Position numbers and translations under genes: made by a program. A stretch of DNA of 57,829 bases from a virus (Duplodnaviria > Heunggongvirae > Uroviricota > Caudoviricetes), in the IMG/VR virus record IMGVR_UViG_2822641076_000001, positions 1-57,829 of that record; one strand, 5' to 3'. Numbering within the stretch: position 1 is the first letter of the stretch; every line of letters begins with the position of its first letter. Of the stretch, positions 30,075 through 52,825 are shown piece by piece. A model generated the notes under the pieces. That model made no database searches. It was not told where the DNA came from and saw nothing but the letters and a program-made list of their open reading frames with translations.

Positions 30075-30432
30075 CTAACCTCTCCCTTCAAATTTCCATA
30101 ATACTACGTTATTTTATCATTATTTTTTACACTTGTCAAAGTGTGGTTTATCCATTATTTATTACACCTGTATAAATAGGAAGGGAAGCAACCCGTCGGC
30201 TACTTCCCTTATAAGATGTTTAAAAATGTTAAGTTAAATATATCATTCAAGACGTACAAAGTCAATACGTTATAGGAGAAAAGTTATTCCCTTTTACTTT
30301 TTCGTTATTTTATACATTTAACGCATTGACAATGTATTATAGTTGTCCTATAATTAACTTATCGGACATAACGATGACACTTAGACGTAAGTGTAACGGA
30401 ATAATAACTAGGAAAAATGGAGATGTTTAAAA

Positions 30433-31497
30433 ATGACAGCAACAGTATTAGAACTACACACAGGACTTAAATCAGAAAACGAACGTATCACCAATTCAAT
30501 CGAGACATTCTTAGAAGGTAAAGGTTTAAAGAGTGCAAACACGAAGACTACATACACTAAGTCAATCAGTCAATTCTTTGAAGATACAAGAGGTAAGAAG
30601 CTAGATGAACTTGTAATGACTGATTTAATATTCACATTCGAAGAAGTACAGAACTATCAAATCGCTTTAACTAAAGTGATGAAGGATAAAGAAGGCAAAG
30701 TAAGAAAGTATAAGAACAAAACGATTAACGGCAAGATTGATGCTGTAAGAAGTTTATATAAATACCTAATGTCTAACGACTATCCTGTTAAGCGTGCATG
30801 GTTTGATATTGACAACCTAACTGAGTTTGACTCTGATAGTTACTCAGTTATCACTTGGGAGGTTGCAGAACAATTCATCAATGCAGTTAAAGGACATAAA
30901 GACGGAGAAGTGAAGTCTCTACTAATCGAATTAGCAGTTGTAACAAGCTATAGATTGGATTCTATGCTTGAAATGACGTGGGATTGCTTTGGTGAGAAAA
31001 ATGGCGTTAAATGCGTAAAAGTACTAGGAAAAGGACAAAAATGGGACGAAAAACCAATAAAAAAGGAACTTTTCGAGCGCTTTATGGAGTTAAAAAAACA
31101 GTCTGATTCTGATAGAGTATTCCCTTCGAATTTATACGCTAGAGCAGTAACAAGAATGATGGATAAGCTAAAAAAAGAATTGGGAATTGTTGATAAGAAT
31201 CTAACGTTTCATAGCTTCAAGAAGTGTGGAATGTATGAGGTAAATGTTATTACTGGCGGAGATATTAAGGAGATTCAACGCCAAGGTAATCACTCTTCTG
31301 AGTTAACGCCTCTTAAATTCTATATGGAGCAGAGTAAAGACTTATCTCAGATGCCATGTCTACAGATTGGTGAGCAAGTTGATTTATCACCATTAGAGAG
31401 TTTAGATAAGGACGAATTAATTAAGTTGATTATGAATAGCGGTCGTGATGTACAAACAAAGTTAATGCAAACTTTTGAGGCAACAGAACAAAATTAA
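30433..31497 (+). CDS. Tyrosine-recombinase-fold protein (integrase or YopP/YopR-like repressor)
   Basis: SYR, GKGQK, FHSFK (Lys in place of the HxxR Arg), GNH, KFY. It has its own TTGACA-17-TATAAT promoter at 30326-30354. Confidence 0.8.
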   Translation: MTATVLELHTGLKSENERITNSIETFLEGKGLKSANTKTTYTKSISQFFEDTRGKKLDELVMTDLIFTFEEVQNYQIALTKVMKDKEGKVRKYKNKTINGKIDAVRSLYKYLMSNDYPVKRAWFDIDNLTEFDSDSYSVITWEVAEQFINAVKGHKDGEVKSLLIELAVVTSYRLDSMLEMTWDCFGEKNGVKCVKVLGKGQKWDEKPIKKELFERFMELKKQSDSDRVFPSNLYARAVTRMMDKLKKELGIVDKNLTFHSFKKCGMYEVNVITGGDIKEIQRQGNHSSELTPLKFYMEQSKDLSQMPCLQIGEQVDLSPLESLDKDELIKLIMNSGRDVQTKLMQTFEATEQN

Positions 31498-31519
31498 AGG
31501 GAGCTAATATCAGCTCCCC

Positions 31520-31906
31520 TTACCCTTTTATATGATAGAATCCACGTCTTGCTTTCTTGATTCTTTTGTCTTTAGTTAATACATTTAATAGGCTATCTCT
31601 CAATGAGGCTTGGTCTACACCTTTATATTGCTCAGTCAATACATTGAAAACATCATCAAGTAAAACAGCTTCCCCACCGTTTAACGTTAGTATGATTTGA
31701 TACACTGATTCCGCAATTTCTTTTGGAGTTATTGTCGGACGCACTTCTTCTTTCACCTGTTCCATTACAACTTTAGCGTCCTCTTCATCCATTTCTCTTA
31801 GTCGTTCTATCATTTCTTTTCTACGGTCATCTAATCTCATCTTTTCTTTTTCTATGGCAATTAAACTCATCTTTATAGCCATTCTTTCATCAAACACTTC
31901 ACTCAT
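31520..31906 (-). CDS. Coiled-coil protein with a C-terminal winged-helix-like domain
   Basis: RBS GAGGTGA before MSEVFDERM. C-terminus RIKKARRGFYHI. Confidence 0.65.
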   Translation of the reverse strand: MSEVFDERMAIKMSLIAIEKEKMRLDDRRKEMIERLREMDEEDAKVVMEQVKEEVRPTITPKEIAESVYQIILTLNGGEAVLLDDVFNVLTEQYKGVDQASLRDSLLNVLTKDKRIKKARRGFYHIKG

Positions 31907-32333
31907 GTCGTCACCTCTGTTCATTATTATTGACACTTGTCATGTATGAGAACGTCAAATACACCCCTCAGACTTGTCAGATTGATTCCTAAGAGGAGTT
32001 TTTCTACTCTGAATATATTTAGCTATAACTCTCATACTAACTCCCTATGAGGCTAGTATACACTCTATATGAAGTTGGAGTTATCGGTCTGTGTATCTAT
32101 CAATTCTTGACAAGTTTGTTTTAACGTATCTATAACCCTACGTAACACACATCCATACGTCCAAATAGTTTTGCACTCACCCCGACGAGAAACAACGTTA
32201 CACGTTATTCTCGTGCGTCTGAGGTATACTCTGTAATGATTAAATCGTACAGAGTTACAAACAAACCTACTCCCCACTGACTCTATTATATTAAAAACCG
32301 ACAACTTGAACAAGTCGTACCAGTTAATTTTTT

Positions 32334-32480
32334 AATAGGTTAACATTTGAGAACGACTATTAATAAAAAGATATACTTTATATATTATTATTAGTTATAT
32401 ATATAATATTTATTAAATAATTAATAGTAATATATATACATCTCTCTTTATTATATGTCAGTCTCAAATGTTAACCTATT
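32334..32480. repeat. 19-bp perfect inverted repeat enclosing an AT-rich core (candidate origin)
   Basis: AATAGGTTAACATTTGAGA at 32334-32352 and its reverse complement at 32462-32480. A third partial copy lies at 33289-33303. Confidence 0.75.
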
Positions 32481-32523
32481 AGATTTTAAATCTCTAAAAA
32501 CAAAAATAAAGCAAGGGAAACCC

Positions 32524-33276
32524 TCACTTTATTACGAGATAGATATTTGGACAATGACGACTACTGTCAGCGATTGTCTCTCTTTTAACAGCTAAGTACC
32601 CTTTCGTTTCTAGCAGTGAAGTGTATTTTCTAATCGTCCTCCTGCTCATTTTTAATACTCCTGTCATATAATCGTATGTACTTTGCATGTATCCTTTTCT
32701 AATACCGTTCTGATATTTTATAAATCCGTAAATCAAGAAGCCTACACAGCCTAATTCTTTGTCTTGGACAATAGACTTGAACACTTCAAAATCAACAGAA
32801 TGAGTATACTCTACTTGGTAGAAAGTACCGTCCAGTACCCCCTCTTCATACCGTGTATGTGCGAGTAAAGGCGATTTGACTTTTATGCCTCGATATGATA
32901 TAATATTCTTATTCGGAATATTCTTACGAATGTCACTAGCAGTTTCGAAGTCAAAGAGATTACCTTCCTCGTCGAAGATAGCTCTGACAGGATACTCACT
33001 AGTGCTTTTTGTGTATCCGATGCTATCAAGAATACCATTATCCTTAATAATGCTGTTTACAGTTTTGTTGTCAGGGTTGTAGCCTAAAAACTCCTTAATC
33101 CTCCGTTGGCTTACAAATTCGTTGTTATCATCAAAATGCAAGCAGTACTTGTACAGGAAATTAATATACGTATAATATGAATAAGCAAACCCGAACTTAC
33201 TAGCGTTCGTGAAATGGCTCGAAAAGTCCTTAAAAATTTCATTAGGTAAATACACAATCATGTTGACTAACACCAA
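32524..33276 (-). CDS. Putative replication initiator / winged-helix protein
   Basis: C-terminal HTH (YDYMTGVLKMSRRTIRKYTSLLETKGYL...NIY). Flanked by the inverted repeat copies. Confidence 0.55.
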   Translation of the reverse strand: MVLVNMIVYLPNEIFKDFSSHFTNASKFGFAYSYYTYINFLYKYCLHFDDNNEFVSQRRIKEFLGYNPDNKTVNSIIKDNGILDSIGYTKSTSEYPVRAIFDEEGNLFDFETASDIRKNIPNKNIISYRGIKVKSPLLAHTRYEEGVLDGTFYQVEYTHSVDFEVFKSIVQDKELGCVGFLIYGFIKYQNGIRKGYMQSTYDYMTGVLKMSRRTIRKYTSLLETKGYLAVKRETIADSSRHCPNIYLVIK

Positions 33277-33414
33277 TCCTCTCGTTGTAATAGGTTAACA
33301 TTTTGTACATTTTATACTAATGTAAAAAATAATGAATGTCAATATTTATTAATATAAAAATTAATGATATAATGTGATTGCAATACATTGCGTCGTTAGA
33401 AAGGATATTACACT

Positions 33415-34068
33415 ATGAAATACACAGAGCGAGATACTGGTAAATCAGTTAACTTACACGAAGAACTTGGAATCGACATGTTGCAGGTATCAAATACTGT
33501 ACTAACGTTCAACCAGTTCCATGAATTTAGTAACCTGCTGTTCCTCGGAATCATGAAAAAAATGCAAAAGATTCAATGCAAACTCCATTTGACCTGTGAA
33601 GGTGCAGAATTTGAATCAACTCATTTTGAAGCGAAAGAAGATAACGGACATCACTTATTCTTCGTCGGAGATGATTTAGTTTCTGCTCGTGAGATTAGTT
33701 CGATGGATATGTTCTATAACTTACATAAAGAGTTCGTGATTAGACTGTATTACCTCTCAAAGAGCGTCAAAAAATACATTCTATTGCGCTTCATTCCCAT
33801 CAAATCAGTCCGTAAGCAGTTGATTGCAGAGTCAGACAACAGATTTAATAGCACTTTGGATATGTCAAAGCTGACTAATAATCCATTGAGAAAAGCGATT
33901 CGTGAGGCTCAAGTTGATGCAATCATAAAGCCACAACCAAAGCTAGATGGAAGTCGTAGAATGCCCGTCATGTTTAGAGGTTACTGGGCTACTGAATCTG
34001 AGCAGTTGAAGCCAAATAATTTTGAGCTAGATAAGGATACCCACATTGCAGAAGCGTTGATGCAATAG
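33415..34068 (+). CDS. Hypothetical protein
   Basis: 217 aa, RBS AGAAAGGA, divergent from the Rep-like gene. Confidence 0.7.
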   Translation: MKYTERDTGKSVNLHEELGIDMLQVSNTVLTFNQFHEFSNLLFLGIMKKMQKIQCKLHLTCEGAEFESTHFEAKEDNGHHLFFVGDDLVSAREISSMDMFYNLHKEFVIRLYYLSKSVKKYILLRFIPIKSVRKQLIAESDNRFNSTLDMSKLTNNPLRKAIREAQVDAIIKPQPKLDGSRRMPVMFRGYWATESEQLKPNNFELDKDTHIAEALMQ

Positions 34069-34069
34069 C

Positions 34070-35460
34070 GGAAATTGTTTATTACACCCCCCTCCCCTCG
34101 TCGATTTAGGCGTGGGGTATTGCTGTATCTAGAGATAATTGAGTCAGCCAATCGGACAAAAAATGATTTTGCGAAATTAATAGAATGCAAATATAAAATT
34201 ATCAGCCATTTGGTTATCGAGTTAGCTAACAGTTGAAGCCAAAATCGAAGTGAATCAAAGTTTAATAGATTCGAAATTAATGCTTGTGAGAGCTGAGAAA
34301 TAAAATGTAAGCCAAAATGATAGAATTGAATACGGAATTTAGCTAACGATGAAGCCTAAAATAAGGGAAATTTTAAGGAGTCATCGTTTTTATTTATGTA
34401 TTATAAGATTGAAAGCAGATGAATCGGTTGGTTATCGGACAAAATTGAGGTTTGAGTTGAGAGCAAAATAATAGATAAATAAGCGGTTTAGCGATAGCGT
34501 TTCGATAGCATCCGAATATAGGGTAAAATCGGACAAAATAATAGGAATTGCAATGAAATTGGCTGACATCGAGTCACCACAGAAAAGTGGGTCTAGGTGA
34601 TGTACAGTTGCGGGGCGGTTCTATTGGTGATGTCGGTTTGCGATTGTAAACTATCCCCCGTCCTATAACTTTACTTGTGGGACACTCGGCTTTATGGATG
34701 TCGTGGCTCGGCTCGGTTGAGCTTGTTGGCGTCGCTCGTCCCCGTGGTCGTCGGCTCGTCGGCTTGGCTCGGTTGGTCGAGATTTTGCCCACGATATTGC
34801 AAGCGATTTGCCCACGGTTGGCGGTTGGGTTTGAGATTCGCCACGGGTTACGGTTGCATGTCGGTCATCGGTTGCAATATAACATATGTCCATCTGTCGA
34901 ACACTATATCAGCAAATTTGCCACAATATGCCACGCTGACATTTGCTCTCTGAGGCGATTATCTCCTACGGCACGTACTACCCCACCTTACTAACTCTCT
35001 CAGAATTGCCCACAGGGAATAGGCAAACTCCTAAAAATTTGCCACATAATACCATCACTATAATTATGTGTGTCTTGTGCATGTGTGGGTTGGTCGGCTC
35101 TGCCTTGCCTTGGTTGGGTTGGCTTGTCTCACCTGTTATGTGTGTATGTCTTGTCATGTCCTTGTGTCTGTCGCTCTCTCTTGTCGTGTCGTGCCTTGTG
35201 CTGTTGGCTCGCTTGCTTGTGCGTGTGGTGTGTGCGTGTGTGCGTCACGCTGTCATGTGTTGGTGTGGTCGTCTTGGTGTGGTGTGCTTGTGTCATGTGT
35301 ATGTAGTGTTATACATGTGGTGTTATGATGTGGTTATGTGGTGCGGTTCTCCTGTTGGTTTCTGTATGGGTAATAGGGCAGGTTATACAGTAGGCTTATA
35401 TGATGGGCTTGTATGGGGATGTATCAATACAACAACGATAGATAAGGAGTAACAGTCTAA
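34070..35460. repeat. Non-coding block of short direct repeats and an A-poor TG-rich tract
   Basis: ATCGGACAAAA x3, GGCTCG(G/T) repeats, ATTTGCC(C)AC-like x6, and only 6 A in 35101-35280. Confidence 0.65.
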
Positions 35461-35570
35461 CTCTATTCCCTTCCATTATCTCGGTTGTTATTGTCTCACT
35501 CATTCAATCTATCTATGAGCATAGCAAAAGAGACAGTGACACTCACATCACTATCCCTTTCCGATTCCTC

Positions 35571-35990
35571 TTATTCTCTTGTCAATCGCTCGTGTGGTGT
35601 CAGACACATGTTAATGAATGTTCTATCACTGTACGATATGGAAATATCTACCCACATAGCAGAGGATATATAAACCTTTATTCTCGGTTGGTCTTTCAAC
35701 ACTATATTGTGATTGTTCCCAATAAACACTATTTGCTCCATTCTGCAATACTTGAAACCCTTCTCTTCATACGCTACTGTAAACCCGTTCGTTAAATATG
35801 CCGTTCCTTTTACTGCATTAAATAACCTACTATCTTTTAACACGTCTAACACCTTGTATAACGTCCTTTCACTCACTTCTATACCATTGGATTCCAACTC
35901 AGCTAAAGTGATGTTGTCATGTCCTTCTAGTGCGTCTGTCACTGCCTTGATTGCTTGTGTTGTTGTTGTGATTGGGCTTAATGTCGTCAT
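35571..35990 (-). CDS. Winged-helix-like DNA-binding protein
   Basis: ITLAELESNGIEVSERTLYKVLDVL. RBS AAGGAG. Confidence 0.6.
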   Translation of the reverse strand: MTTLSPITTTTQAIKAVTDALEGHDNITLAELESNGIEVSERTLYKVLDVLKDSRLFNAVKGTAYLTNGFTVAYEEKGFKYCRMEQIVFIGNNHNIVLKDQPRIKVYISSAMWVDISISYSDRTFINMCLTPHERLTRE

Positions 35991-36251
35991 GTTGTTCTGT
36001 CTCCTTTTATTTCCATCGGTTTATTTTCCTGTTTTTAATTATCAGATATTTCACAAATCAAAAATGATTTATAACTTTATGTAATTCTTTTCCAATCTAT
36101 CAAGGAAATCAATTTGCTTTTTCGTTTGGCTGATTTTACTATTAATTTTATAATTGGTTATCAATCTTTTAATTCTAGAAATCATTTTCCAATTCTCCTT
36201 TTAGTTGGTCGGGACTCGTGAGAGTCCCAGTTTTTAAAATTTTATTTTTGA

Positions 36252-36950
36252 TTAATTCCAAAAGTCAGATTTTACCCAACTACCATCCTCAGCTTGTACA
36301 TATCCATCTTTATTTCTATTTTCATCATTCAAATCATTTTCACGAAAATCTTTATCATAATCGCCTTTTTCCACCTTTTGAATATCGACAATTCTGTCAG
36401 TTGTGTTCCATAAATTCATAGCAACATTAATTTTGTCACCTAGTTTGTAAGTACCATTATTTTCTAAAACCATTGTGTCATTTGGGTTAAATTCATTTAC
36501 TAGGAAAATATATTCATCATCGTTAAAATCGTTAATTCCCTTTTCATTTGCATCCGTTACAATGTAAGTATTTTGAACCGTTGACATGTTTTGCACGTAA
36601 ACTATTTCAATGTCATCATGATTAAATTGTACTATTACGTTTTGCCCAACCATCGGGATATGATAGTCCATTTCCTCAGCGTTCGCATAAACAAAATCAG
36701 TGTCATCATGAATGTTATCCAGTTTGTAATATCCGTCTTCTGTTTTCTCTCCGTTGTATTTAAATTCTTGCATGAAAATGAAATCCTTATTTGTATCATG
36801 TGTAGAACGTGCAACCGTTGTTTTCTCTTCTGCTTTTGCATTACTGATAATTTCTAAATCCATTGATAGAAAACCTAGTCCTAAAATCGCTCCAATAATT
36901 CCAATTCCAACCATTTTTTTGATAAACTTTTTCATTTTAATTTGCTCCAT
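36252..36950 (-). CDS. Exported/membrane-anchored protein
   Basis: N-terminal KKFIKK plus a hydrophobic helix and an A-K-A signal-peptidase-like site. Confidence 0.7.
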   Translation of the reverse strand: MEQIKMKKFIKKMVGIGIIGAILGLGFLSMDLEIISNAKAEEKTTVARSTHDTNKDFIFMQEFKYNGEKTEDGYYKLDNIHDDTDFVYANAEEMDYHIPMVGQNVIVQFNHDDIEIVYVQNMSTVQNTYIVTDANEKGINDFNDDEYIFLVNEFNPNDTMVLENNGTYKLGDKINVAMNLWNTTDRIVDIQKVEKGDYDKDFRENDLNDENRNKDGYVQAEDGSWVKSDFWN

Positions 36951-36999
36951 TCACTTTTTATTTTTTTGTTTTAATTTCATTATTTTTTACATTTGTTTT

Positions 37000-37104
37000 T
37001 TAAAAGAAAGAAATAGTTTGAACCTTTCGAGCATGAACTAAGATTAACTTTCCGTTTACTACCATCATCATTTTAATTTCTTGTACTCGTGTAATTGTCA
37101 ACAT
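37000..37104 (-). CDS. 34-aa small protein (not in the ORF track)
   Basis: Own promoter and AGGAGATGTTTAAAAATG leader. MLTITRVQEIKMMMVVNGKLILVHARKVQTISFF. Confidence 0.6.
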   Translation of the reverse strand: MLTITRVQEIKMMMVVNGKLILVHARKVQTISFF

Positions 37105-37363
37105 TTTTAAACATCTCCTGTTTTATATATTTTGTAAGTGTTGTTCGTCTCAACTACCTTACATTTAAAATTTTATCAAATTAATAGTGCACTGTCAATG
37201 GATTTTAGAAAAATAGTTTTTTATTTTCGTTTCCATTAATGATATCAATTAGAAGCCTCAGATTGGCTTGTATGCGTTTCTATCCTTTCCATGTGTAATC
37301 ATATTAGATAACAAACTAGGACAAAAAGCATACTTTTTTCAAAAAATCAAGACTTGCCTTTCA

Positions 37364-37981
37364 TTATTTTTTACATTTATAAAGAATTTCTTTGGCGTGG
37401 TCAATCCACTCCGCCAAACACTCACAAGATATATTATCAATTTCAGAAAACTCTGTTTTGTTCTTGTTATAAGATTGCTGAATTTTACTAAATTGAATCA
37501 TCACTAAATTTTTATCCAGTAATGACAATTCGCTCATATGGTACATTCTGACATCAACAGTCTTTTGCAGAGTCCAAACCGCTTCTAATTTATGGTTTGT
37601 TAATTGCTCTCTCACTTGATATAAGCCGTTTGCAAATTGTCCCAATTCGTAAATTTCATTATTATGTCGAACCGCTAAACGGTTTTCAAATTTGATAATT
37701 TTACGTTTTAAAATCTTCCCATTAATCAGGACGTTAATTACCATATTGCTAAAGATATTATTATTCACGTACTCTTTAATGAAAGAATAAATTCCATCTT
37801 TCTTAGTTTCGTCTACAATCCCCATTGCACGATAAGAAGTTTCAAAAAGTACTACACGATATTTGTTATCAAGGTTATAAGCGTTACCGCCTTTTTGTTC
37901 GCCTGTGATATCATCTTTAATTAGAACATACTCATTTTTTAAAACTGGCTTTTCGATTACTACTGTTAAATTATCTGTCAT
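37364..37981 (-). CDS. Hypothetical protein downstream of hammerhead 1
   Basis: 205 aa with the GGAGATGTTTAAAAATG leader. Confidence 0.75.
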   Translation of the reverse strand: MTDNLTVVIEKPVLKNEYVLIKDDITGEQKGGNAYNLDNKYRVVLFETSYRAMGIVDETKKDGIYSFIKEYVNNNIFSNMVINVLINGKILKRKIIKFENRLAVRHNNEIYELGQFANGLYQVREQLTNHKLEAVWTLQKTVDVRMYHMSELSLLDKNLVMIQFSKIQQSYNKNKTEFSEIDNISCECLAEWIDHAKEILYKCKK

Positions 37982-38012
37982 TTTTAAACATCTCCATTTT
38001 GTAAATTATTTT

Positions 38013-38078
38013 TGGTTTGTCTCATCAGCATGTAAAGAACCACTTTACATGGACGGGACTCGAAAGTCCCGTTTCGAC
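38013..38078 (-). ncRNA. Type II hammerhead ribozyme 1
   Basis: GTC-GAAA-C-GGGAC(TTTCGA)GTCCC-GTC^-CATGTAAAG(TGGTT)CTTTACATG-CTGATGA-GAC-A-AACCA. Full core, GUC cleavage triplet, and loop I pairs with the 3' tail. Confidence 0.92.
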
Positions 38079-38132
38079 TTGTGGGAACGTCTTCCCTACA
38101 TTTGTTATTATAAGTGATAACAAATGTATATG

Positions 38133-38279
38133 TCAATCATTATTTTTTTCATTTGTATCAATCGGGAAAAATTCACCTTTTGTAATCTTGTTTCTGATTG
38201 CTTCAATACTAACTGGTACTAGAAGCGGAGAAAACAACCCAATCAGAATAATAATTGCATCCATAAATTGATTTAACAT
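38133..38279 (-). CDS. 48-aa small membrane protein (not in the ORF track)
   Basis: Leader AAGGTGTTTAAAAATG and a hydrophobic segment AIIILIGLFSPLLVPV. Confidence 0.6.
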   Translation of the reverse strand: MLNQFMDAIIILIGLFSPLLVPVSIEAIRNKITKGEFFPIDTNEKNND

Positions 38280-38409
38280 TTTTAAACACCTTTTCCTTTT
38301 TAGATTTTTGTAAGTCGTTTGTTCAACTACCTTACATTTAATATTTTACTAAAAAAGAAGACCACTGTCAATGCATTTAATTAAAATAATTTATTATTTT
38401 TTACATTTG

Positions 38410-38652: not shown

Positions 38653-38733
38653 TTTTATTCTCCTTTCATCAACCTAATGTTATTATAAATGATAACAATT
38701 ATTTTTGTAAACAATTATTTTTTACACTTGTTA

Positions 38734-39057: not shown

Positions 39058-39152
39058 TTCCTCTTTTCTGTATAATAGTTTCTTCGTTAACCTAATGTTA
39101 TTATAAATGATAACTAATTCGGATGTCAATCATTATTTTTTACATTTGTAAT

Positions 39153-39812: not shown

Positions 39813-39907
39813 CTTTTTATTTTATTTTCGAACCTATAGTTATTATAAATGATAACAATTGCGGATGTCAATCATTATTTTTTACATTTGTGAAATCACT
39901 TTCTTTT

Positions 39908-40287: not shown

Positions 40288-40452
40288 TTTTAAACATCTC
40301 CTTTGTTGCATCTGTTGTTATTATAAATGATAACAACTTTATATGTCAACACTTATTTTTGTAGTTGAGAAAAGGTGTACTTCCCTCAACTACATTTAAA
40401 ATTCTATCAGATAATAAATCCACTGTCAATGCATTATATGAAATTTGTTCAT

Positions 40453-40734: not shown

Positions 40735-41117
40735 TTTCAAACATCTCCTTCGTTGCGTCTTTTGTTATTATAAATGATAACAAAATGACATGTCAACAAC
40801 TAATTTCATTATTTGTTTCACTTGTATTCCGTTTGTTTATTACGTCCCTAATGTTACAGAAAAATCAGTGCACTGTCAATGGATTTTATGAATTATTTTT
40901 AGTTTGTAGTTTTCAATCACGCATATATATAGAAGAAACTCGAAACTACCATATAAAGAGCATTTCGACTTATATTGTATTTTTTATTCGTAATTATCTG
41001 ACTATAATCGCAGCAAAAACCAGTAAACAAAATCAAAATAGAGACAACAGGAAGAATGAGAGACAGAGCGATGACATAGGCGAGCGGTACGGCTCGTTCA
41101 TTTTTGACACTCAGTTC

Positions 41118-42370: not shown

Positions 42371-42588
42371 ACAAATTATATAATATTATATAATGTAATA
42401 TAAAATATTATAATAAATCCATTGACAGTGGATGGGTAAAAATGTATACTAATCCATGTAATCAACAAACGGGAGCTGATAAGCAACAAGAAACCCGAAA
42501 GCATAATTAATTTATTACTTGTCTTTAACTAGACAAATCTCAAAACAGAAACAAAAAATGATTTTAGGAATTAAGGGGATGTTTAAAA

Positions 42589-43361: not shown

Positions 43362-43386
43362 ATATTAATTTTAGAGGTGTTTAAAA

Positions 43387-44100: not shown

Positions 44101-44279
44101 TTGTATAGTATCTTTGAATACTATTTCTATAAAGGATTTCAAGATAATATTTAAAGATACTATTTTAATAAAATCCATTGACAGTGGATTTATAATGTTA
44201 TATGATATTATTAAATGTTATATATTATTATATAATCGTATATAACATAATGTATTGTAATGAATAGGAGATGTTTAAA

Positions 44280-44633
44280 ATGAAAATTCGTGTCGTACAA
44301 CTCAACGAGAACGAACGACCAGTAGTAGCAGAAATCGACGCATCACAAGAAATTTTCAGTAAAGGCTTAGAAGGCGCTATTGTCACGGATGATATCCATC
44401 TATGGTTCAAGAACGAAAAAGATGAAGAAGATGTTTTGAAAGATAATCTTATCTTTGCGTATGAAGACCTAGAGTGGGAAGTAATCTGTGGCAATGCATT
44501 TTTCGCATCATACATCGGAGGAAAAGACACCTTATCTTTGACTGATAAACAAATCACAGAAATACAAAACAGAATAACGCCAGTAATAACACGTACAGGC
44601 GAAACGTTATTCGCAATCCGTTTAGACCAATAA
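44280..44633 (+). CDS. DUF3846-like protein, paralog 1
   Basis: MKIRVV...ICGNAFFAS...SLTDKQI. Confidence 0.7.
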   Translation: MKIRVVQLNENERPVVAEIDASQEIFSKGLEGAIVTDDIHLWFKNEKDEEDVLKDNLIFAYEDLEWEVICGNAFFASYIGGKDTLSLTDKQITEIQNRITPVITRTGETLFAIRLDQ

Positions 44634-44656
44634 AGCATAATAGGAGATGTTTAAAA

Positions 44657-45019: not shown

Positions 45020-45049
45020 TCGAAATTTTAAATAGGAGATGAACAACTT

Positions 45050-45523: not shown

Positions 45524-45529
45524 ACCATC

Positions 45530-45553
45530 GAAGAGCTTCGGCTCTTCTTTTTT
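45530..45553 (+). terminator. Intrinsic terminator
   Basis: GAAGAGC-TTCG-GCTCTTC-TTTTTT. Confidence 0.85.
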
Positions 45554-45712
45554 ATTGAAATTATTTAAAATAATCCATTGACAGTGGATTTATAATGTAT
45601 TATATTATAAGAGTAAGTTATGTGATATTAATTTATCGAACATTATATAATGTAATATAATATAATGTTATGTAAGTTAATATAAAATAATATTATAGGA
45701 GATGTTATAAAA

Positions 45713-46486
45713 ATGGCTACTTTAAGAGAGAAATTGATTGATTCATTGCAAATCTCAGAAGACCATCCAAAAGTGGACGCACTAATATTTACAAGATTGG
45801 TCGGTATCGAATGCGCTGACTACTGTACACGATGTGGCGGTACTGGCAACTATTCATACAATCCGATGCACGGTTCTACTTGTTTCAAGTGTGACGGTAG
45901 AAAATATCAAATGCCAAAAATTACGAAAAAGCTTCTAGTGAAAGTTGAAGAGGCAATCGCAGAAGGGAAGTTACAGCATTACTTTGAAGAAACGCAGAAG
46001 AGACAGAAAATCAAGTTATTCATAAAAGAGATAACAAGATATGAAGTATATTCAGATACAATGTTCAAGGATGACGATTTTGGTAAATACTACGACGCAG
46101 GACAGAAAAAAGATAACTCATACGAACACCATGTATATGAGCTATGGACGAGTCATGATAAATTTATAGAAAGCATCAAAGAGAAGTGTCGATACTTCGG
46201 TAGAAATGTCCATCCAAGACTAGCTCAGAAGAAAGCTGAGATGGAGAAAGATATTTTTGATAACTACAAAGAATACTTTGAACGAATCAGAGAGAACTAC
46301 AGTATCCTAACTAATAAAGATAGATTGATTACATATGCAACAAAGAAACAAGAACAACGAAAATCTGAGCAAAAAGAGTCGCTTATAAAGCTATTGAAAG
46401 AATCCGTGGAAGCAGAGGACTGGAAGATGGTGAACTTCTGCTCAGAGGGATTAATGAATATACAGGAGGGCAAGAAGCCCTTCTAG
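45713..46486 (+). CDS. Zn-finger protein (DnaJ-like CxxCxGxG)
   Basis: CTRCGGTG...CFKCDG. Confidence 0.75.
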   Translation: MATLREKLIDSLQISEDHPKVDALIFTRLVGIECADYCTRCGGTGNYSYNPMHGSTCFKCDGRKYQMPKITKKLLVKVEEAIAEGKLQHYFEETQKRQKIKLFIKEITRYEVYSDTMFKDDDFGKYYDAGQKKDNSYEHHVYELWTSHDKFIESIKEKCRYFGRNVHPRLAQKKAEMEKDIFDNYKEYFERIRENYSILTNKDRLITYATKKQEQRKSEQKESLIKLLKESVEAEDWKMVNFCSEGLMNIQEGKKPF

Positions 46487-46587
46487 GCTTCATTAATAAC
46501 AAATCAGCAGATTACTTGCAATCATTGGTAGGTATAGTATAAGATAACAATACAGAAATTAAAAATAATGAATAAGGGGATATCGTT

Positions 46588-46830
46588 ATGTATATTAGAG
46601 AGTTTGAAGTAACAACGAACGCAACGTTCAAACACGGTTGGGAGTTATTTGGATATCAAAAAGAATTTATTGGTGCTGTCCAAAACGTAGAGGCGATGGC
46701 TATTGGCTTAGGTCGTCAATTCTTGTTTGATGATATGTTATTTAATGTTGTAGACATCGAGCGACTAGAGGGCGAAACTCGCTATCATTTAGATGAAGTA
46801 CGACCTGCACCAATCAAACTGGAAGTTTAA
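46588..46830 (+). CDS. Hypothetical protein
   Basis: 80 aa with RBS AAGGGG. Confidence 0.65.
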   Translation: MYIREFEVTTNATFKHGWELFGYQKEFIGAVQNVEAMAIGLGRQFLFDDMLFNVVDIERLEGETRYHLDEVRPAPIKLEV

Positions 46831-46928
46831 TTACAACTGTAAAAAATAATAAAAAGCAACATTCTATATGTTGCTTTTCCTAACCACCTGTGTTATCATT
46901 AATAGTAACAATATAAGGAGTTGACATT

Positions 46929-47189
46929 ATGGGAAATCAAACAAATCAAGAGCAGATGATTGCAGAACAAAAAGAGCAATTCGCAAAAATTATTAAACAG
47001 CAAATGAAAAACCGCAATCTAACTGTTAGAGGTGTTGCAGAGCTAATTGAAAATTTCAGCTTCCCTCAATTAACTCGTATCACAGGCGGAAAGAACTATA
47101 ATATTGACACTCTAATTAAAGTTCTAGATGTACTTGGACTTGAGTTAAACGTCACGTTGAAAGACATTGACAACAAAGATAGTAAGTAA
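46929..47189 (+). CDS. XRE-family HTH regulator
   Basis: LTVRGVAELI...FPQLTRITGGKNYNIDTLIKVLDVLG. Confidence 0.8.
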   Translation: MGNQTNQEQMIAEQKEQFAKIIKQQMKNRNLTVRGVAELIENFSFPQLTRITGGKNYNIDTLIKVLDVLGLELNVTLKDIDNKDSK

Positions 47190-47203
47190 GAAGGAGATAT
47201 AAG

Positions 47204-47407
47204 ATGTTCGAATGTGTTGAATGCAATAAAAGCCTTGAAGCTATGGCTTATGCAGAGATTGATGATATCAAAATATGTTTACCATGCTACTCAGAAGGGA
47301 TTCCTCAACCTCCAAGAAGAAGCGACTTTGATTGGGAGAAGAAATCAAAGGAGCGCAAAGAAGCAATCAGGAATCGCAATGTAGAACTTCTAAGAAAGTA
47401 CGGTTAA
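47204..47407 (+). CDS. Small Zn-ribbon protein
   Basis: CVEC...CLPC. Confidence 0.6.
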   Translation: MFECVECNKSLEAMAYAEIDDIKICLPCYSEGIPQPPRRSDFDWEKKSKERKEAIRNRNVELLRKYG

Positions 47408-47436
47408 TATATAAGGGGAAATGGGAGATGTTTAAA

Positions 47437-47928
47437 ATGTTAGAATCACGTTATGACAAGACCGACGGGTTTTGGAAATACCATGATGAGAATGGTGGCT
47501 TTCAAATAAGACATGTAACTAAGAAGCAATTTGAAGAGGAAAAATCAGCTTTACACAAGCTATGCAAGCCTCTGTCAGAGGAATACATTAGACATTTTGG
47601 TCTTACAGAATATCATATATGTACCGATAGAGATAAAATTGTATCTCTCATCAAAGAATTACAAAAGCGTGGTTATGTATTCTCTATGAATGATGAAGAG
47701 CGTCAGACTATCATATTAGAGCGGACAGCTTATTCACACGCTATGCGTTGCAGGTATTATCATCAATTAAAAGTGAAATACGCCAAACCGTGGGGACAAT
47801 ATCAATTCTTATGGGAATCAAGTTTTTACTTTCCTAAGAACAGACGTGTAAAATTCGGCTCAAAGTACCTGCCTCTACGGAGATATACAGAATCTCCATT
47901 TGGGTTGGGAAGCACATGCAAATTATAA
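47437..47928 (+). CDS. Hypothetical protein
   Basis: Start moved to MLESRY after the GGGAGATGTTTAAAATG leader. Confidence 0.65.
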   Translation: MLESRYDKTDGFWKYHDENGGFQIRHVTKKQFEEEKSALHKLCKPLSEEYIRHFGLTEYHICTDRDKIVSLIKELQKRGYVFSMNDEERQTIILERTAYSHAMRCRYYHQLKVKYAKPWGQYQFLWESSFYFPKNRRVKFGSKYLPLRRYTESPFGLGSTCKL

Positions 47929-47944
47929 AATAAGATGTTTAAAA

Positions 47945-48358
47945 ATGTTAGAGAGGAAGATTAAAATGGAATCAGCATCAAAATCAGCATTAGTATCACT
48001 CAGAGCAGATAATAAGATTTATATTATGGCGGACGAAGGGATGATTTCAGGCTTCGAGAACAAGCAAAAAGCATTGGATTTCTTCCAAAAGGGCTACAAC
48101 CAGTCTCATAGAAGAGGATATGAAGCTAGTATGTCAGCGTGTATAAACTACATAACATTCCAACCTGCAATCCATGAGATTAGTGAGGATGAGCTACAAG
48201 GGCTAGTAGAGCAGGGAGTCATTGTGCCTGAGACATTTAAGAGTTATAGATTAAATCATATCTCAGGAATGATGACAGGTGCGCTATGTACAGGTGAAAA
48301 CGCTGAAAAATGGCATGAGAGCGGAACATCACCACGATTAATTGAGGAACAATTCTAA
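47945..48358 (+). CDS. Hypothetical protein
   Basis: Start at MLERKIK or MESASK. Confidence 0.65.
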   Translation: MLERKIKMESASKSALVSLRADNKIYIMADEGMISGFENKQKALDFFQKGYNQSHRRGYEASMSACINYITFQPAIHEISEDELQGLVEQGVIVPETFKSYRLNHISGMMTGALCTGENAEKWHESGTSPRLIEEQF

Positions 48359-48600
48359 TGAGTGAATATGTTATTTATCTTTCCAGTGAAGAAACACCAA
48401 AAGATGTACATAACTCTTATGGATACTGGGGAGGAAAAATACTTTCTTCGGGTGGTATGCGCTACCCATCAATAGGTGTTTGCAGTGATAAAAAAGATGT
48501 GAAGAAATACAAATCAAAGAAGAGAGCCGAAAATATGGCTGAAAAGCTCGCAGACAGATGTTTCTATGTTCTATCTTGGGTAGTTGAAGAAATCGAATAA
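48358..48600 (+). CDS. Hypothetical protein
   Basis: Coupled TAATG start. Confidence 0.65.
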   Translation: MSEYVIYLSSEETPKDVHNSYGYWGGKILSSGGMRYPSIGVCSDKKDVKKYKSKKRAENMAEKLADRCFYVLSWVVEEIE

Positions 48601-48613
48601 CGGAGGGGTTTTT

Positions 48614-48898
48614 ATGCGTAAACAGATGTATCAAAATTATATTGAAAAACTAAATGAAGAAAGAGTTGACAGTTCCTCTTTAACAGTGGAGCGTATTAAA
48701 AATCTAGGTACTAAAGAATGCCTTATCTGCTCTACAAGCACAGTAGAGTTAGGAATAATGCATAAGTTAACTATAACGGAGACCAGTGTTATCGAGAGCG
48801 AAAATGAATATATCGTTTTAGATGCATTTGGATATATAATATGGACAGATGACGCAAAAGGTACATTTGATTACATACAAGGATTTACTAAAGAGTAG
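48614..48898 (+). CDS. Hypothetical protein
   Basis: RBS GGAGGGG before MRKQMY. Confidence 0.65.
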   Translation: MRKQMYQNYIEKLNEERVDSSSLTVERIKNLGTKECLICSTSTVELGIMHKLTITETSVIESENEYIVLDAFGYIIWTDDAKGTFDYIQGFTKE

Positions 48899-48912
48899 AG
48901 GAGAGTTTTAAA

Positions 48913-49119
48913 ATGAGTGAAGAAAAAGTATTTTTACATTGGACGAAAAGAGGATGGGATACACCAAAAATGTTTAGAGGTGTTCCATGCTGTGCAGAGT
49001 TTGAATCATTAGAAAAGCTAAAAAAGACTATGAGCAATTGTATTTACAATGGAGAGTGGGTTACAGACTCGAAAGGGAACGCTATCGACATAGATTTAGA
49101 GAGCATTTGTGCAGGTTAA
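48913..49119 (+). CDS. Hypothetical protein
   Basis: RBS GAGGAG. Confidence 0.65.
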   Translation: MSEEKVFLHWTKRGWDTPKMFRGVPCCAEFESLEKLKKTMSNCIYNGEWVTDSKGNAIDIDLESICAG

Positions 49120-49159
49120 CTTTGGATAAAATATTTATTTGATTGAAGGGGGACACATT

Positions 49160-49327
49160 ATGAAAAGATACAATATAACAATTGTTTACAGCAATGGGTT
49201 ATCAAGAAGCACATCTAATAACTCTCTCAATAAAGAGGAAGCGATTAATACTGCTTTAAAAACTGACATGGATGCAGAAAATATAATCTCTATCACTATT
49301 GTAGAGCATGTGAGAGAAGATATATAA
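49160..49327 (+). CDS. Hypothetical protein
   Basis: RBS AAGGGGG before MKRYNI. Confidence 0.55.
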   Translation: MKRYNITIVYSNGLSRSTSNNSLNKEEAINTALKTDMDAENIISITIVEHVREDI

Positions 49328-49335
49328 AGAGCCGT

Positions 49336-49557
49336 ATGACAAAGGAGACTCAAATGAACGGGAATAAAGTGTACAAGGGAAGTGCTTTAAAAGCTTGGTT
49401 TTTGAGCAAACCGAACATCAGAAGGATATTGATTCCTAGCGGTGATAGTTTTCACATCATGAATCTAGATGAAATCATTGATACTGACTACTATTTAATT
49501 ACACAAAGAGACTTCAACTCTATAACAATTGAAGAAGTCGAACTAATAACAGATTAA
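49336..49557 (+). CDS. Hypothetical protein
   Basis: 73 aa. The start may be MNGNKV. Confidence 0.55.
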   Translation: MTKETQMNGNKVYKGSALKAWFLSKPNIRRILIPSGDSFHIMNLDEIIDTDYYLITQRDFNSITIEEVELITD

Positions 49558-49577
49558 AGAATTAAGGGGAGATAATC

Positions 49578-50231
49578 TTGGAGAAGCATATCATTATTGA
49601 ATTAAAAGATAAGACAAAGTACACAAATCTTGAAGGTTTAGGCAATAACCTAGAAACAGTTGAGGAAATCAAAGAACAACTAGATAAAACAGGGGAATAT
49701 GTATTTCAACCCTTCGTAGGCGAACAAATTACTCTTAAAAAATCAGATATCAGAGCAATCCGTCACACTAAGAGCTATACATCTACTTCTTACAGTCCTT
49801 TTGGTAATTCATACAAGATTAGAACTCATTTCTTACCCGATGGTGCAGTTAATATTCATAAAAAGAACTCGCTAGGAAGAATTGATTCAACTCTAACACT
49901 TGATAGTAAGACTGCTTTGCAATTGGCTAGGGATATCTTAGAGAAAGAAGCCGAGAGGGAACAAATTTATAATATTAATCAAGATAAGCATGAGAATCTT
50001 CGTGATATTGATGAAATATTATCAATTGCTATCAGTCAAGACTGGGAAATTGATGCTACAAAGTCATATACAATGATTGGTTTCCAAAATGATAGATTTA
50101 AAGTAATGCTCCACACTATAGAAGGACATTACTCAATTCAAGATAAAGAAACGAACAAGGGGATTGTACATGACGTGAATAGCATAGATGATGGTGGTTA
50201 TCCCGAAATCTTCAACATGTTTTATAAGTAA
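49578..50231 (+). CDS. Hypothetical protein
   Basis: TTG start after AAGGGGAG. Confidence 0.65.
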   Translation: MEKHIIIELKDKTKYTNLEGLGNNLETVEEIKEQLDKTGEYVFQPFVGEQITLKKSDIRAIRHTKSYTSTSYSPFGNSYKIRTHFLPDGAVNIHKKNSLGRIDSTLTLDSKTALQLARDILEKEAEREQIYNINQDKHENLRDIDEILSIAISQDWEIDATKSYTMIGFQNDRFKVMLHTIEGHYSIQDKETNKGIVHDVNSIDDGGYPEIFNMFYK

Positions 50232-50239
50232 GTCACACT

Positions 50240-50275
50240 AAAGATAGAAGTAAAATTCTATCTTTTATTTTTCTG
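50240..50275 (+). terminator. Intrinsic terminator
   Basis: AAGATAGAA-GTAAAA-TTCTATCTT-TTATTTTT. Confidence 0.65.
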
Positions 50276-50347
50276 AAATAGTCCATTGACAGTGGACTTT
50301 AAGTGGTGCTATAATGAGTACATAAGATGAAGAGGAGATGTTTAAAA

Positions 50348-50779
50348 ATGAAAAACGAAATCAAAGCAGTAGAAGAAAGAATCGAATTAGCTAGTATGTT
50401 AAATGGGGTATTCAATGTTAGAATGAAGGGTAATTGGAGACCTCAAATAGAAGGTGCAAGCGTTATGACAGCGGAAAGTGTTGTTGAAGAGTTCTACGTT
50501 GAGTCAATTAGAACAGGAGAATACCACGGAAATAAAACAGCACTTCTAATCGGTACAGACTACCACAATAGAGAATTATCACTTCCTGTGAGTAGAATTA
50601 TTGATGCTCACAAAGTAGATACGGATGAACAAACTAAATTAAAAACATTTAATATAGCTTTAGATGTACTAAAGGAAACATGCACCGAGGACGATGCAAA
50701 TTATGCATTAGTCTTAAAAATGGCTAAAGAATTAGAGGATAAAGGGATTAAAGAATATATCCCAGTAAGAGCTTCATAA
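50348..50779 (+). CDS. Hypothetical protein
   Basis: Class A promoter plus the GAGGAGATGTTTAAAAATG leader. Confidence 0.72.
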   Translation: MKNEIKAVEERIELASMLNGVFNVRMKGNWRPQIEGASVMTAESVVEEFYVESIRTGEYHGNKTALLIGTDYHNRELSLPVSRIIDAHKVDTDEQTKLKTFNIALDVLKETCTEDDANYALVLKMAKELEDKGIKEYIPVRAS

Positions 50780-50856
50780 ATATAACAATTAGAATAGAGG
50801 AGGGGAGACGTTCCCCTCTTAATATAAATAACAAATAGCATTAAGGAGCATATACG

Positions 50857-52305
50857 ATGGACGATATTATTATGATGGCAAATCAGCAGATTACAGAAGA
50901 CGACCTATATCCTCTAACAGAGGAAAACATAGCATTATTCAATGAAAAAGGATATAAATTACCGACTCGTGAGGAATTGAAACGAGATGCAGAGAGTCAA
51001 GATTTATCAATTGATGATTTCTATTTATGCGATAAGATTTTTGAACCATTCTGCTACTGCAAGTTTCCTGTATACTTCGGCACAACATCGTTAAAAGAAG
51101 TATTTGGTCTTCATGGCATGACGCCACTGAAAAAGCATATTGAATGGCTTGAGGCACATGCAAATAAATTGCTTCATGAGAAGAAGGATTACTTTGGATT
51201 CCTAACATTCACTAATACGCATGTTAAATTCATGTTCATGAATAAAATGTACTGGGATGTTCCAGTAGAAGACCGATACGAGTTATTCATCGAGTTTTAC
51301 ACTCATGAGGACTATGGACACCATTTAATTGATAGAAAGTTGATACAGGATGCAGTTAAGCACCAACAAACAGCATACAAAGATGAAATGCTATCTCGAT
51401 TAAATGACACTCTATCAAATGTCGGTACAGATGAAATGATTACTATCTACAGAGGATGCGGTGATAAATCAACTGCTCCTACAGAATCTATGAGTTGGAC
51501 ACTAAGCCTTGATACAGCAATATTCTTCGCAATGCGTAGAGGATTAGATGGTGATATCTATGAAGCAAAAGTGAAGAAAGAACACGTTATCGACTATCTA
51601 CAAGGAAGAAACGAAGAGGAGATTCTAGCATTCCCTCAGCATGTAGAAGATATCAAGCCTTATAATATGATTAAAACAAATGAAGAGATTCGAGCAATGC
51701 TAGATGATGAATATGCAGAAGAGTATCACTTATACAAGAATACATTCATCTTAGATAAATACTTTGACAATCCTGAGGGTATTCATGGTACTCTACACTG
51801 TAAACGTGTATTATTCCACGCATTATCACTGTCACGAGCGCTGAATCTAAACATGAGAGACAGAGGAATCCTATGCAATGTAGCTTGCTTCCATGATATC
51901 GGTCGTGAGAATGATGATGAAGACAGAGAACACGGAAAGCTAAGCGTATTAAAGCACCATGAAGAAATCTCAGGTAGTTTCCCGTATACGTGTATTGACG
52001 TAGTAAATAGAGAAGATACAAGTGAAGAATATGAATTACATCATATGACGGATGATGAAGTTGATATTATCGAATTTATCATGGAGTATCATTGTATTGG
52101 CGATGAAGAATCAAAAGATGCTTTACACAATCTAAACTGGGACAATGAGAAAACCGAGAGAGCATGGAATCTATATGTGATTTTTAAAGATGCTGACGGG
52201 CTAGACAGAGTTCGTATCAAAGATTTGGATACTAAATACCTAAGAACAGCAGAAGCAAAGAATCGTGTACTATTTGCATACGGGTTATTAAAAGGAATTA
52301 AATAA
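50857..52305 (+). CDS. ADP-ribosyltransferase-like domain fused to an HD-domain phosphohydrolase
   Basis: TIYRG...SMSWTLS...NEEEIL (R-S-ExE pattern), then HGTLHCKRV...HDIGR...EHG...KDADGLDRVR. Confidence 0.7.
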   Translation: MDDIIMMANQQITEDDLYPLTEENIALFNEKGYKLPTREELKRDAESQDLSIDDFYLCDKIFEPFCYCKFPVYFGTTSLKEVFGLHGMTPLKKHIEWLEAHANKLLHEKKDYFGFLTFTNTHVKFMFMNKMYWDVPVEDRYELFIEFYTHEDYGHHLIDRKLIQDAVKHQQTAYKDEMLSRLNDTLSNVGTDEMITIYRGCGDKSTAPTESMSWTLSLDTAIFFAMRRGLDGDIYEAKVKKEHVIDYLQGRNEEEILAFPQHVEDIKPYNMIKTNEEIRAMLDDEYAEEYHLYKNTFILDKYFDNPEGIHGTLHCKRVLFHALSLSRALNLNMRDRGILCNVACFHDIGRENDDEDREHGKLSVLKHHEEISGSFPYTCIDVVNREDTSEEYELHHMTDDEVDIIEFIMEYHCIGDEESKDALHNLNWDNEKTERAWNLYVIFKDADGLDRVRIKDLDTKYLRTAEAKNRVLFAYGLLKGIK

Positions 52306-52484
52306 TACAAGCACCTTCAAAAGAAAAGATAACCAGTCCATTGACAATGTTTATTATGTAAAAATTATATACTTACAAAGAAAATAATTCCTCTTATGGG
52401 GTTTTATTTTTTTACCATGTAGTGCATTGACAGTGGACTATCAAGGTGCTATACTAAGTATAGAAATTGAGGAGGGGAAATGAC

Positions 52485-52712
52485 ATGGCTAGAAACAGAT
52501 TAAAAGAGCTTGCTAAAGACCTAGTATTCGTAAATGACAACCTAGAAAAAGATAACGTTAATGAATTAGATATAACAGAGTTAAAGGCGCATCAAAATCA
52601 AATCATGGACGAACTTATAAAAGGTGGATACAGCACCGATTTGCTAGTTCAATACATGAAGGAATACAGAGAAGTTCCCGTTGGTGGTTTTAACGAATGG
52701 ATTAACAGTTAA
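52485..52712 (+). CDS. Hypothetical protein
   Basis: Class A promoter and RBS GAGGAGGGG. Confidence 0.65.
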   Translation: MARNRLKELAKDLVFVNDNLEKDNVNELDITELKAHQNQIMDELIKGGYSTDLLVQYMKEYREVPVGGFNEWINS

Positions 52713-52825
52713 TGGTGCAGGTGAGAGCAATCTCACCTAAAATTTTAACAAACAGTGCATTGACAGTGGATTTTAAATTTGCTATAATGAATATAGAAAT
52801 TAAAGTATAAGGGAGAACGATTATA

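Follow-up and report, generated by a model that had tools for sequence, protein, structure and literature searches.

The window analyzed here is 57,829 bp long and forms the start of a phage record of 153,621 bp (IMG/VR IMGVR_UViG_2822641076_000001), a large plasmid-prophage of the Bacillus cereus group; coordinates marked "genome" refer to the whole record. Within the window lie twelve promoters that we call class A, sigma-A-type promoters having the -35 hexamer inside a 19-bp dyad, together with a gene (30433-31497, plus strand) encoding a tyrosine-recombinase-fold protein of 354 amino acids (aa), which the initial annotation had taken to be the repressor acting at these sites. Four further copies at genome positions 58871, 61455, 64237, and 117407, beyond the window, bring the set to 16 sites. 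The class A promoters are strong host sigma-A-type promoters of early units. The overall best explanation, to which we give a probability of about 0.6, is that the class A dyad is the site of a phage repressor and that the 354-aa protein is not the best candidate for that repressor.

A search of the window with CCATTGACAGTGG allowing up to two mismatches gave 11 matches where 0.76 were expected, a number reached by none of 100 shuffled sequences. The matches are located at 37189, 38362, 40420, and 40870 on the minus strand and at 42419, 44175, 45575, 50283, 52338, 52424, and 52757 on the plus strand. The variant CATTGACAATG occurs exactly twice, at 52339 and at 30324, and the copy at 30324 is the twelfth promoter of the window. 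The initial annotation had reported promoters with a palindrome-embedded -35 box and both variant copies, and these were confirmed, although its coordinates were offset by one base; the longest-armed 21-mer is likewise real, with AAATCCATTGACAGTGGATTT present once, at 44171. In each class A copy TTGACA is followed 17-18 bp downstream on the same strand by a -10-like hexamer, often with an extended TG, and the promoters are oriented with their genes, the four leftward copies facing leftward genes and the rightward copies facing rightward genes.

The promoter of the 354-aa gene (30315-30357, plus strand) is a weak class A variant, AACGCATTGACAATGTATT, having two arm mismatches, A at +3, and a -10 TATAAT at 17 bp; it is identical in the sister phage G001, an IMG/VR contig (152,852 bp, terminal repeats present) whose proteins are 95-97% identical to those of this phage. 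On the minus strand the promoter at 37180-37210 (AATCCATTGACAGTGCACT) drives a leftward gene and that at 38353-38383 is a plain motif match, whereas those at 40411-40441 and 40861-40891 are each followed by a promoter of a second class (class B, described below), in the former case about 80 bp downstream and belonging to the same gene and in the latter about 83 bp downstream. On the plus strand the promoter at 42410-42455 precedes the first rightward early unit, that at 44166-44211 has the longest arms, and that at 50274-50320 (AGTCCATTGACAGTGGACT) has perfect outer symmetry; the promoters at 45566-45611, 52415-52460, and 52748-52793 are motif matches. The remaining copy, at 52329-52375 on the plus strand, is a half-operator variant with an intact left arm and a degraded right arm. 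A terminator-like hairpin with a T-run lies about 50 nt beyond this promoter (52341-52420), and the half-operator promoter may give a short non-coding transcript directly ahead of the next class A promoter.

Alignment of the 16 sites, anchored on the A of TTGACA, brought out several informative positions outside the search pattern and defined the 19-bp dyad as A-R-T-S-C-A / TTGACAG / T-G-S-A-Y-T, centered on that A at about -32. The outer positions are A at -9 in all 16 sites and T at +9 in 12 of 16; those next to them show a matched purine/pyrimidine degeneracy (-8 A or G, 11 and 5 sites; +8 T or C, 10 and 6 sites), followed by T at -7 and A at +7 (14/16 each) and by C or G at -6 facing mostly G at +6. 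Information content falls sharply at +/-10. The palindrome is imperfect and its asymmetry is systematic, with T at -3 but G at +3 in 14/16 sites and A at +3 in the two variant sites only. On average 6.4 of 9 positions are palindromic in class A sites as against 3.7 of 9 in the 73 other TTGACA occurrences of the genome, and the arms-only pattern ARTSCA-N7-TGSAYT has nine genomic copies, every one with TTGACAG as spacer. No within-site correlation between -8 and +8 was found, indicating that the half-sites vary independently. The dyad symmetry exceeds what the promoter consensus needs, as is expected of an operator.

Comparison with relatives pointed in the same direction. G001 retains 15 orthologous class A sites, in which the dyad is 93.7% identical and the -10 region 94% identical, as compared with 79% just upstream and 80% in the spacer, and the dyad changes are confined to degenerate positions. 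For wider comparison we used nine lineages, the phage under study and eight genomes at a greater distance, each encoding a homolog of the 354-aa protein, with their consensus promoters listed (megablast of the region against the phage collection had given no matches). Five lineages bear the dyad. In FADO the element AATCCGTTGACAACGGATT is a perfect palindrome present in about 18 copies in the early region, vB_BcoS-136 has about 25 copies of ATCTGTTGACAAWAGAT, and Tsamsa (ATCGCTTGACAAGAGAA) and KKP_3916 (TCGCTTGACAAGCGA) have a like design with different arms. Among the consensus promoters listed for the other four genomes, Lactococcus phage 949 (virulent), SPbeta, a Staphylococcus SPbeta-like phage, and Geobacillus E3 (GeoE3), no -35 dyad was found. 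Preservation of symmetry while the arm sequence changes is the pattern of a site for a dimeric protein. The arms differ between this phage and Tsamsa, which belong to one host group, and almost coincide between this phage and FADO, which have different hosts; hence they track the phage rather than the host, and the factor that reads them is probably phage-encoded and not host-encoded. The earlier proposal that the palindrome is an operator thus gains support from its symmetry, from the phylogenetic footprint, and from the like architecture with different arms in four phage lineages. From these sequence comparisons we predict that the dyad is very probably the operator of a phage-encoded dimeric repressor.

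The 354-aa gene is monocistronic, with a hairpin terminator directly after the stop codon, and its product is a tyrosine recombinase of the YopP/Tyrovirus gp19 type. It matched Pfam PF00589 (Phage_integrase, 9.6e-13) and, weakly, SAM_4. In blastp it aligned over its full length with SPbeta YopP (6e-29, 27% identity), and yopP was its sole tblastn match in SPbeta, whereas no similarity to YopR/MrpR was detectable (E 0.33), neither MrpR Pfam family (PF22822 or PF22823) was matched, and no MrpR chain, 8A0A included, was returned in the PDB sequence search. The protein is 34-36% identical to its Tsamsa, vB_BcoS-136, and 949 ORF1 homologs. It is therefore a YopP ortholog and not, as had been proposed, a protein of the MrpR type.

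The catalytic residues were placed by alignment with Tsamsa gp255, vB_BcoS-136 gp100, 949 ORF1, YopP, and the canonical integrase of the window (7702-8676). The initial annotation was correct in reading HSFK in place of the catalytic HxxR, in that H260-S-F-K263 aligns with the HxxR box, and YopP likewise has HSFK. The picture of a catalytically inactive repressor was, however, not supported by the remaining residues. R174, K200, H260, H287, and Y297 are kept, so that five of the six residues of the R-K-H-R-H/W-Y set are present and Arg II alone is replaced, by Lys. At the catalytic residues of the family, 12 homologs showed no variation. When 1.84 billion cluster representatives were searched with a profile, 361 proteins were obtained at E <=1e-30, and in the 146 representatives aligned Arg I was present in 146, the Lys in 144, His II in 146, His III in 139, and the Tyr in 145, with the Arg II position occupied by K in 94 and R in 52. 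Interchange of K and R together with conservation of the remaining set argues for selection for a working active site that accepts Lys, rather than for decay. The AlphaFold (AF2) model of the protein (predicted local distance difference test score, pLDDT, 80) had active recombinases as its nearest structures (Tn1549 Int, XerH, XerA, IntI, Cre, and lambda Int), and MrpR was not among its top 50 fold matches. The family is also found in phage 949, which has neither MrpR nor the dyad. Autoregulation through the variant promoter at 30324 had also been suggested, and this was not reproduced in relatives: the promoter of the Tsamsa gene lacks that lineage's dyad, and in FADO and KKP_3916 a promoter of this kind was looked for and not found. 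We conclude from sequence and model that the 354-aa protein is probably an Xer-like recombinase that is still catalytic, possibly resolving dimers of the plasmid prophage or serving as an accessory factor that binds DNA; a literature search found no demonstrated function for any member of the YopP/gp19 family.

The MrpR-family protein of this phage is encoded elsewhere. A tblastn search with SPbeta YopR detected genome 64683-65588 (8.6e-24), and the corresponding 355-aa protein (genome 64533-65600), encoded 7 kb beyond the window and behind a dyad copy, matched PDB 8A0A over residues 47-352 (3.5e-24), PF22822 (2.2e-19) and PF22823 (5.5e-16), both above the cut-offs, and phrog_5830 (3.8e-72). 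By these sequence matches it is a true MrpR-family member. Upstream of the gene lies a terminator (about 64072-64094) and then the class A variant promoter at 64237. A second promoter, some 115 bp ahead of the start, carries a class A half-site, TTGGCAATGGATTT, as its downstream flank. In the leader, between these promoters, lies a perfect 6-5-6 palindrome, ATACACATTCAGTGTAT (genome 64351-64367), the arms of which are the ATACA/TGTAT arms of SPBRE, the dispersed element of SPbeta, and this palindrome may be an autoregulatory site. In the same operon (genome 64533-66679) the MrpR-like gene is followed directly by a 90-aa XRE gene (65616-65888). A single-sequence model of the XRE protein resembles VanUg, CylR2, the N-terminal domain of TP901-1 CI, and other XRE repressors; a word-indexed homolog search with the protein returned only itself.

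The other candidate regulator in the window is a 250-aa protein (32524-33276, minus strand) orthologous to Tsamsa gp253 (tblastn 3.9e-28) and belonging to phrog_19047, "transcriptional regulator" (7e-58). It has a weak HTH_36 match, and no solved relative was found.

The distribution of these proteins in the nine genomes differs. YopP-like proteins are present in all nine, including the four that lack the dyad. The MrpR-like protein is present in eight and absent only from the virulent phage 949, whereas gp253-like proteins are present in the five dyad-bearing lineages and GeoE3 but missing from the remaining three genomes (949, SPbeta, and the Staphylococcus SPbeta-like phage). In each of the five lineages with the dyad, the XRE gene comes immediately after that for the MrpR-like protein. 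In divergence within the Tyrovirus clade XRE is the fastest, with 40-45% identity as against 57-63% for the other candidates, which is as expected of an immunity-specificity determinant. This phage and FADO also have the tripeptide IKY in common where the recognition helix of XRE begins, an anecdotal observation.

Given these data, the mechanism that we favor is one in which a phage protein would bind as a symmetric dimer to the two 6-bp arms of the dyad. Because the dyad center lies at about -32, the bound dimer would block access of sigma region 4 to the -35 box, and all early units would be shut off together. The operon at genome 64533-66679, with its MrpR-like gene and CylR2/VanU-like XRE gene, would be the repression module, more probably than the 354-aa protein, and it would itself be transcribed from the class A variant promoter at 64237 and the second, half-site promoter. 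Among the candidate binders we rank XRE ahead of the MrpR-like protein, followed by the gp253-like regulator and then the YopP-like protein. The choice of XRE as the reader of the dyad is tentative and stands well short of an even chance. It is rather unlikely that something else, or nothing, reads the dyad.

Several observations weigh against repression of this kind or against XRE as its agent. The Cro/C1-type helix-turn-helix Pfam match of the XRE protein is below threshold (20.7 as against a cut-off of 22 bits), and its fold matches are weak, the best having an E of 4e-3 and coming from a single-sequence model of pLDDT 72. A free-standing 77-aa XRE homolog is found in the dyad-less phage 949, so that the phyletic fit is imperfect, and the five dyad-bearing genomes are related, so that co-occurrence partly reflects shared ancestry. 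Column-wise covariation of arm sequence with the candidate proteins across the five lineages gave nothing above background for any of them. The 6-7-6 layout suits two recombinase-fold protomers no less well than a helix-turn-helix dimer. The SroD protein, which occupies the YopP position in the sro operon of SPbeta-family phages, is reported to have been called an auxiliary repressor by Brady et al. in 2023 (Cell Host Microbe), and if that is correct the 354-aa candidate is left some room. Finally, the class A promoters at 58871 and 61455 lie ahead of the operons for partition (59586) and replication (62161). Continued expression of these genes is required in a plasmid prophage, and hence class A promoters cannot simply be off in the lysogen and all-or-none repression is an incomplete story. 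Either repression at these two sites is partial or autoregulatory, or the dyad serves an early-to-middle shut-off in lytic growth.

The proposal with which the analysis began, that the 354-aa protein is an autoregulated, catalytically inactive master repressor binding the palindrome, draws on the weak dyad variant of its own promoter and the conservation of that variant in G001, on the Lys at Arg II, and on the fact that tyrosine recombinases bind inverted arms 6-8 bp apart, which matches the 6-7-6 layout. We consider it quite improbable, both in that form and as the simple statement that a YopP-like protein reads the dyad, given the orthology, active site, structural neighbors, and phyletic and promoter distributions described above. 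In addition, a catalytically competent recombinase acting at 16 sites in both orientations would scramble the genome. The homology argument for the assignment was wrong and its substance is unlikely; on balance we favor the view that the protein is an active integrase or that another factor binds the motif. A possible though doubtful reader is the MrpR-like protein with one protomer on each arm, the dyad then being functionally equivalent to SPBRE. This protein belongs to the family by its sequence matches, and all dyad-bearing genomes encode it whereas 949 does not. Upstream of its gene are a class A variant promoter and a promoter with a half-site, and the roughly 16 copies at early promoters parallel the roughly 10 MrpR peaks obtained by chromatin affinity precipitation sequencing (ChAP-seq) in SPbeta (PMC10516654). 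By our own reading five of nine SPBRE copies also contain ATACA-N7-TGTAT, a 5+7+5 arrangement like ATCCA-TTGACAG-TGGAT. However, the boxes read by MrpR and SroF are long, asymmetric, and AT-rich, and each of these proteins is a monomer, SroF reading 24 of the 26 bp of its box (PMC10516654; bioRxiv 10.1101/2025.11.27.690993), and SPBRE as we re-derived it from SPbeta promoters is about 22 bp, asymmetric, AT-rich, and without a fixed position relative to the promoter. Moreover, SPbeta, the Staphylococcus SPbeta-like phage, and GeoE3 have MrpR and no -35 dyad. For the same features SPBRE was rejected as a direct sequence relative of the dyad (asymmetric and AT-rich) and also as a mere spacer of a fixed promoter (position variable). 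A related and unlikely scheme has recombinase-fold proteins on the dyad, one per arm, either two MrpR-like proteins or one MrpR-like and one YopP-like. In this phage group the operators of early promoters would then have evolved from tyrosine-recombinase core sites with 6-bp arms and a 7-bp spacer, the -35 box would lie in the former crossover spacer, and SPBRE (ATACA-N7-TGTAT) would be a decayed form.

Binding of the dyad by the gp253-like regulator, perhaps as a lytic early-to-middle switch rather than as the lysogeny repressor, would suit the class A promoters ahead of the replication and partition genes. The gp253-like gene adjoins the YopP-like gene in all dyad-bearing lineages, the protein has its PHROG regulator assignment, and it is absent from three of the dyad-less phages. 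Its presence in the dyad-less GeoE3, the lack of a dyad in its own promoter, and a case for DNA binding that consists of the HTH_36 match alone make this alternative improbable. Lastly, there may be no dedicated binder, the promoters being recent copies of one cassette or the flanks tuning contacts with RNA polymerase. TTGACA is itself partly palindromic (TG-A-CA) and other promoter classes of this genome also have stereotyped flanks, but the arms have stayed conserved and symmetric where the spacer and the upstream flanks have diverged, the arm sequences are lineage-specific with symmetry kept in each, and dyad symmetry is not demanded by polymerase contacts. We regard this explanation as very improbable. 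A further protein, XRE118 (118 aa, HTH_3 match 1e-15, genome 134995-135351), was not favored as the binder because it is absent from vB_BcoS-136, Tsamsa, and KKP_3916, although FADO has a 36%-identical match. XRE118 and a 75-aa open reading frame form a divergent pair (genome 134712-135351) that resembles a cI/cro-type switch and lies near a dif-like site at about 132.8 kb.

The favored reading, a dyad bound by a phage repressor over the -35 box, has partial precedents. The principle of a dimeric repressor site over a -35 box is classical, and the XRE and Cro/CI systems (lambda, 434, TP901-1 CI, CylR2) likewise have 17-19 bp dyads over the core promoter with the outer arms best conserved, and a small XRE-type helix-turn-helix gene, like that of the putative immunity operon here. 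Specific to this phage group are the use of the -35 hexamer itself as the operator center and the lineage-specific arms on a common scaffold. This genome also differs from the XRE and Cro/CI systems in having one putative operator per promoter across about 16 units rather than a single OL/OR (left and right operator) cluster. The SPBRE/MrpR system of SPbeta and phi3T (YopR, SroF) is alike in that a dispersed, repeated element marks some 10-16 early promoters in a large siphovirus of Bacillus, in that this genome encodes a true MrpR-family protein, and in that the element also precedes the repressor operon. It is unlike the present system in that the element here is a GC-containing 19-bp dyad locked to the -35 box whereas SPBRE is about 22 bp, asymmetric, and read by a monomer, and in that the 354-aa candidate is not the MrpR homolog.

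Known counterparts of the 354-aa protein are SPbeta YopP (position D of the yopM-R or sro operon) and the "XerD-like" Tyrovirus gp19. The orthologs share HSFK, the invariant Tyr, and neighboring plasmid and helicase genes (PMC8612738; PMC9703825), and the best full-length matches of the 354-aa protein are to YopP and gp19, with which it has the H-x-x-K/R box and a C-terminal extension in common. They differ in that the gene studied here is monocistronic and not in an operon with the MrpR-like gene. For SPbeta, YopP is described (PMC8612738) as a product of the yopM-R operon, with no feature beyond a XerC-type integrase domain. Three conserved tyrosine recombinases define the tyroviruses (PMC9703825), namely gp19, encoded beside plasmid-like genes, gp50, encoded in the structural module, and gp175. 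Judged by position and similarity, gp19 corresponds to the 354-aa protein, gp50 to a 324-aa integrase (7702-8676, minus strand), and gp175 to the MrpR-like protein. The 324-aa protein has a canonical HxxR box, is encoded inside the structural module, and is 57-63% identical in Tsamsa, vB_BcoS-136, FADO, and the virulent phage 949, far better conserved than the other two. These assignments correct a mis-assignment, as only one of the three proteins is MrpR-like and the YopP/gp19 type retains its active site.

The Tyrovirus paper mentions neither promoters nor repressors (PMC9703825). We found no publication on the dyad design in Tyrovirus-like phages and no description in the literature of lysogeny control in Tyrovirus-like plasmid prophages of the B. 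cereus group. The sites mapped here would constitute a compact, testable regulon in widespread large Bacillus phages. Stand-alone contigs of 150-154 kb with a near-identical 354-aa protein are present in assemblies labeled B. anthracis, B. cereus, B. bombysepticus, and B. wiedmannii, and the genome encodes an actin-like (Alp/ParM-like) partition gene and a Rep initiator, all of which fits a plasmid prophage. Lineage-specific arms on a common scaffold would explain heteroimmunity among co-occurring phages and would offer orthogonal repressor/operator pairs for Bacillus genetics.

Two other promoter classes were recognized. Class B, AAAAAATAATGA-TTGACA-N18-TATAAT, has its own inverted repeat, TTGTTAT...ATAACAA, around the -10 box and five minus-strand copies at 38136, 39129, 39871, 40349, and 40796 (regions 38090-38140, 39085-39135, 39825-39875, 40305-40355, and 40750-40800). 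Two of these lie about 80 bp downstream of class A promoters and form tandem promoters for the same gene. Class C, ACAAGTGTAAAAAATAATGA, has about 70 copies genome-wide that are co-oriented with genes and lie 10-40 nt upstream of ribosome-binding sites; examples are window 27801-27823, 30117-30139, and 15070-15090 and genome 66836, 67953, 81982, and 91166. Class C resembles SPBRE at about 15 of 20 positions. It was nevertheless rejected as an MrpR operator and assigned as a promoter class because it stands in front of nearly every middle or late operon and agrees with the A-rich spacer found in the general promoter of Tsamsa and vB_BcoS-136 (TTGACA-AGCATAAAAAATAATGA-TATAAT). The -35 and -10 hexamers are missing from most class C copies, and these may be read by a phage factor such as the sigma-like protein encoded at 27154-27609.

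Early genes also share a stereotyped translation-initiation cassette, GGAGATGTTTAAAAATG, which is reused ahead of 9-13 of them, including the YopP-like gene (window 30419-30435, 37105-37122, 40288-40305, 44266-44282, 50333-50349, and others). An AT-rich composite repeat, ATTATATAATATTATATAATGTAATATAA, occurs beside class A promoters and also a short distance ahead of the Alp/ParM-like gene for partition (window 42376-42400, 45635-45670, and 22870-22890; genome 59467-59510), and it may be a centromere or a second operator.

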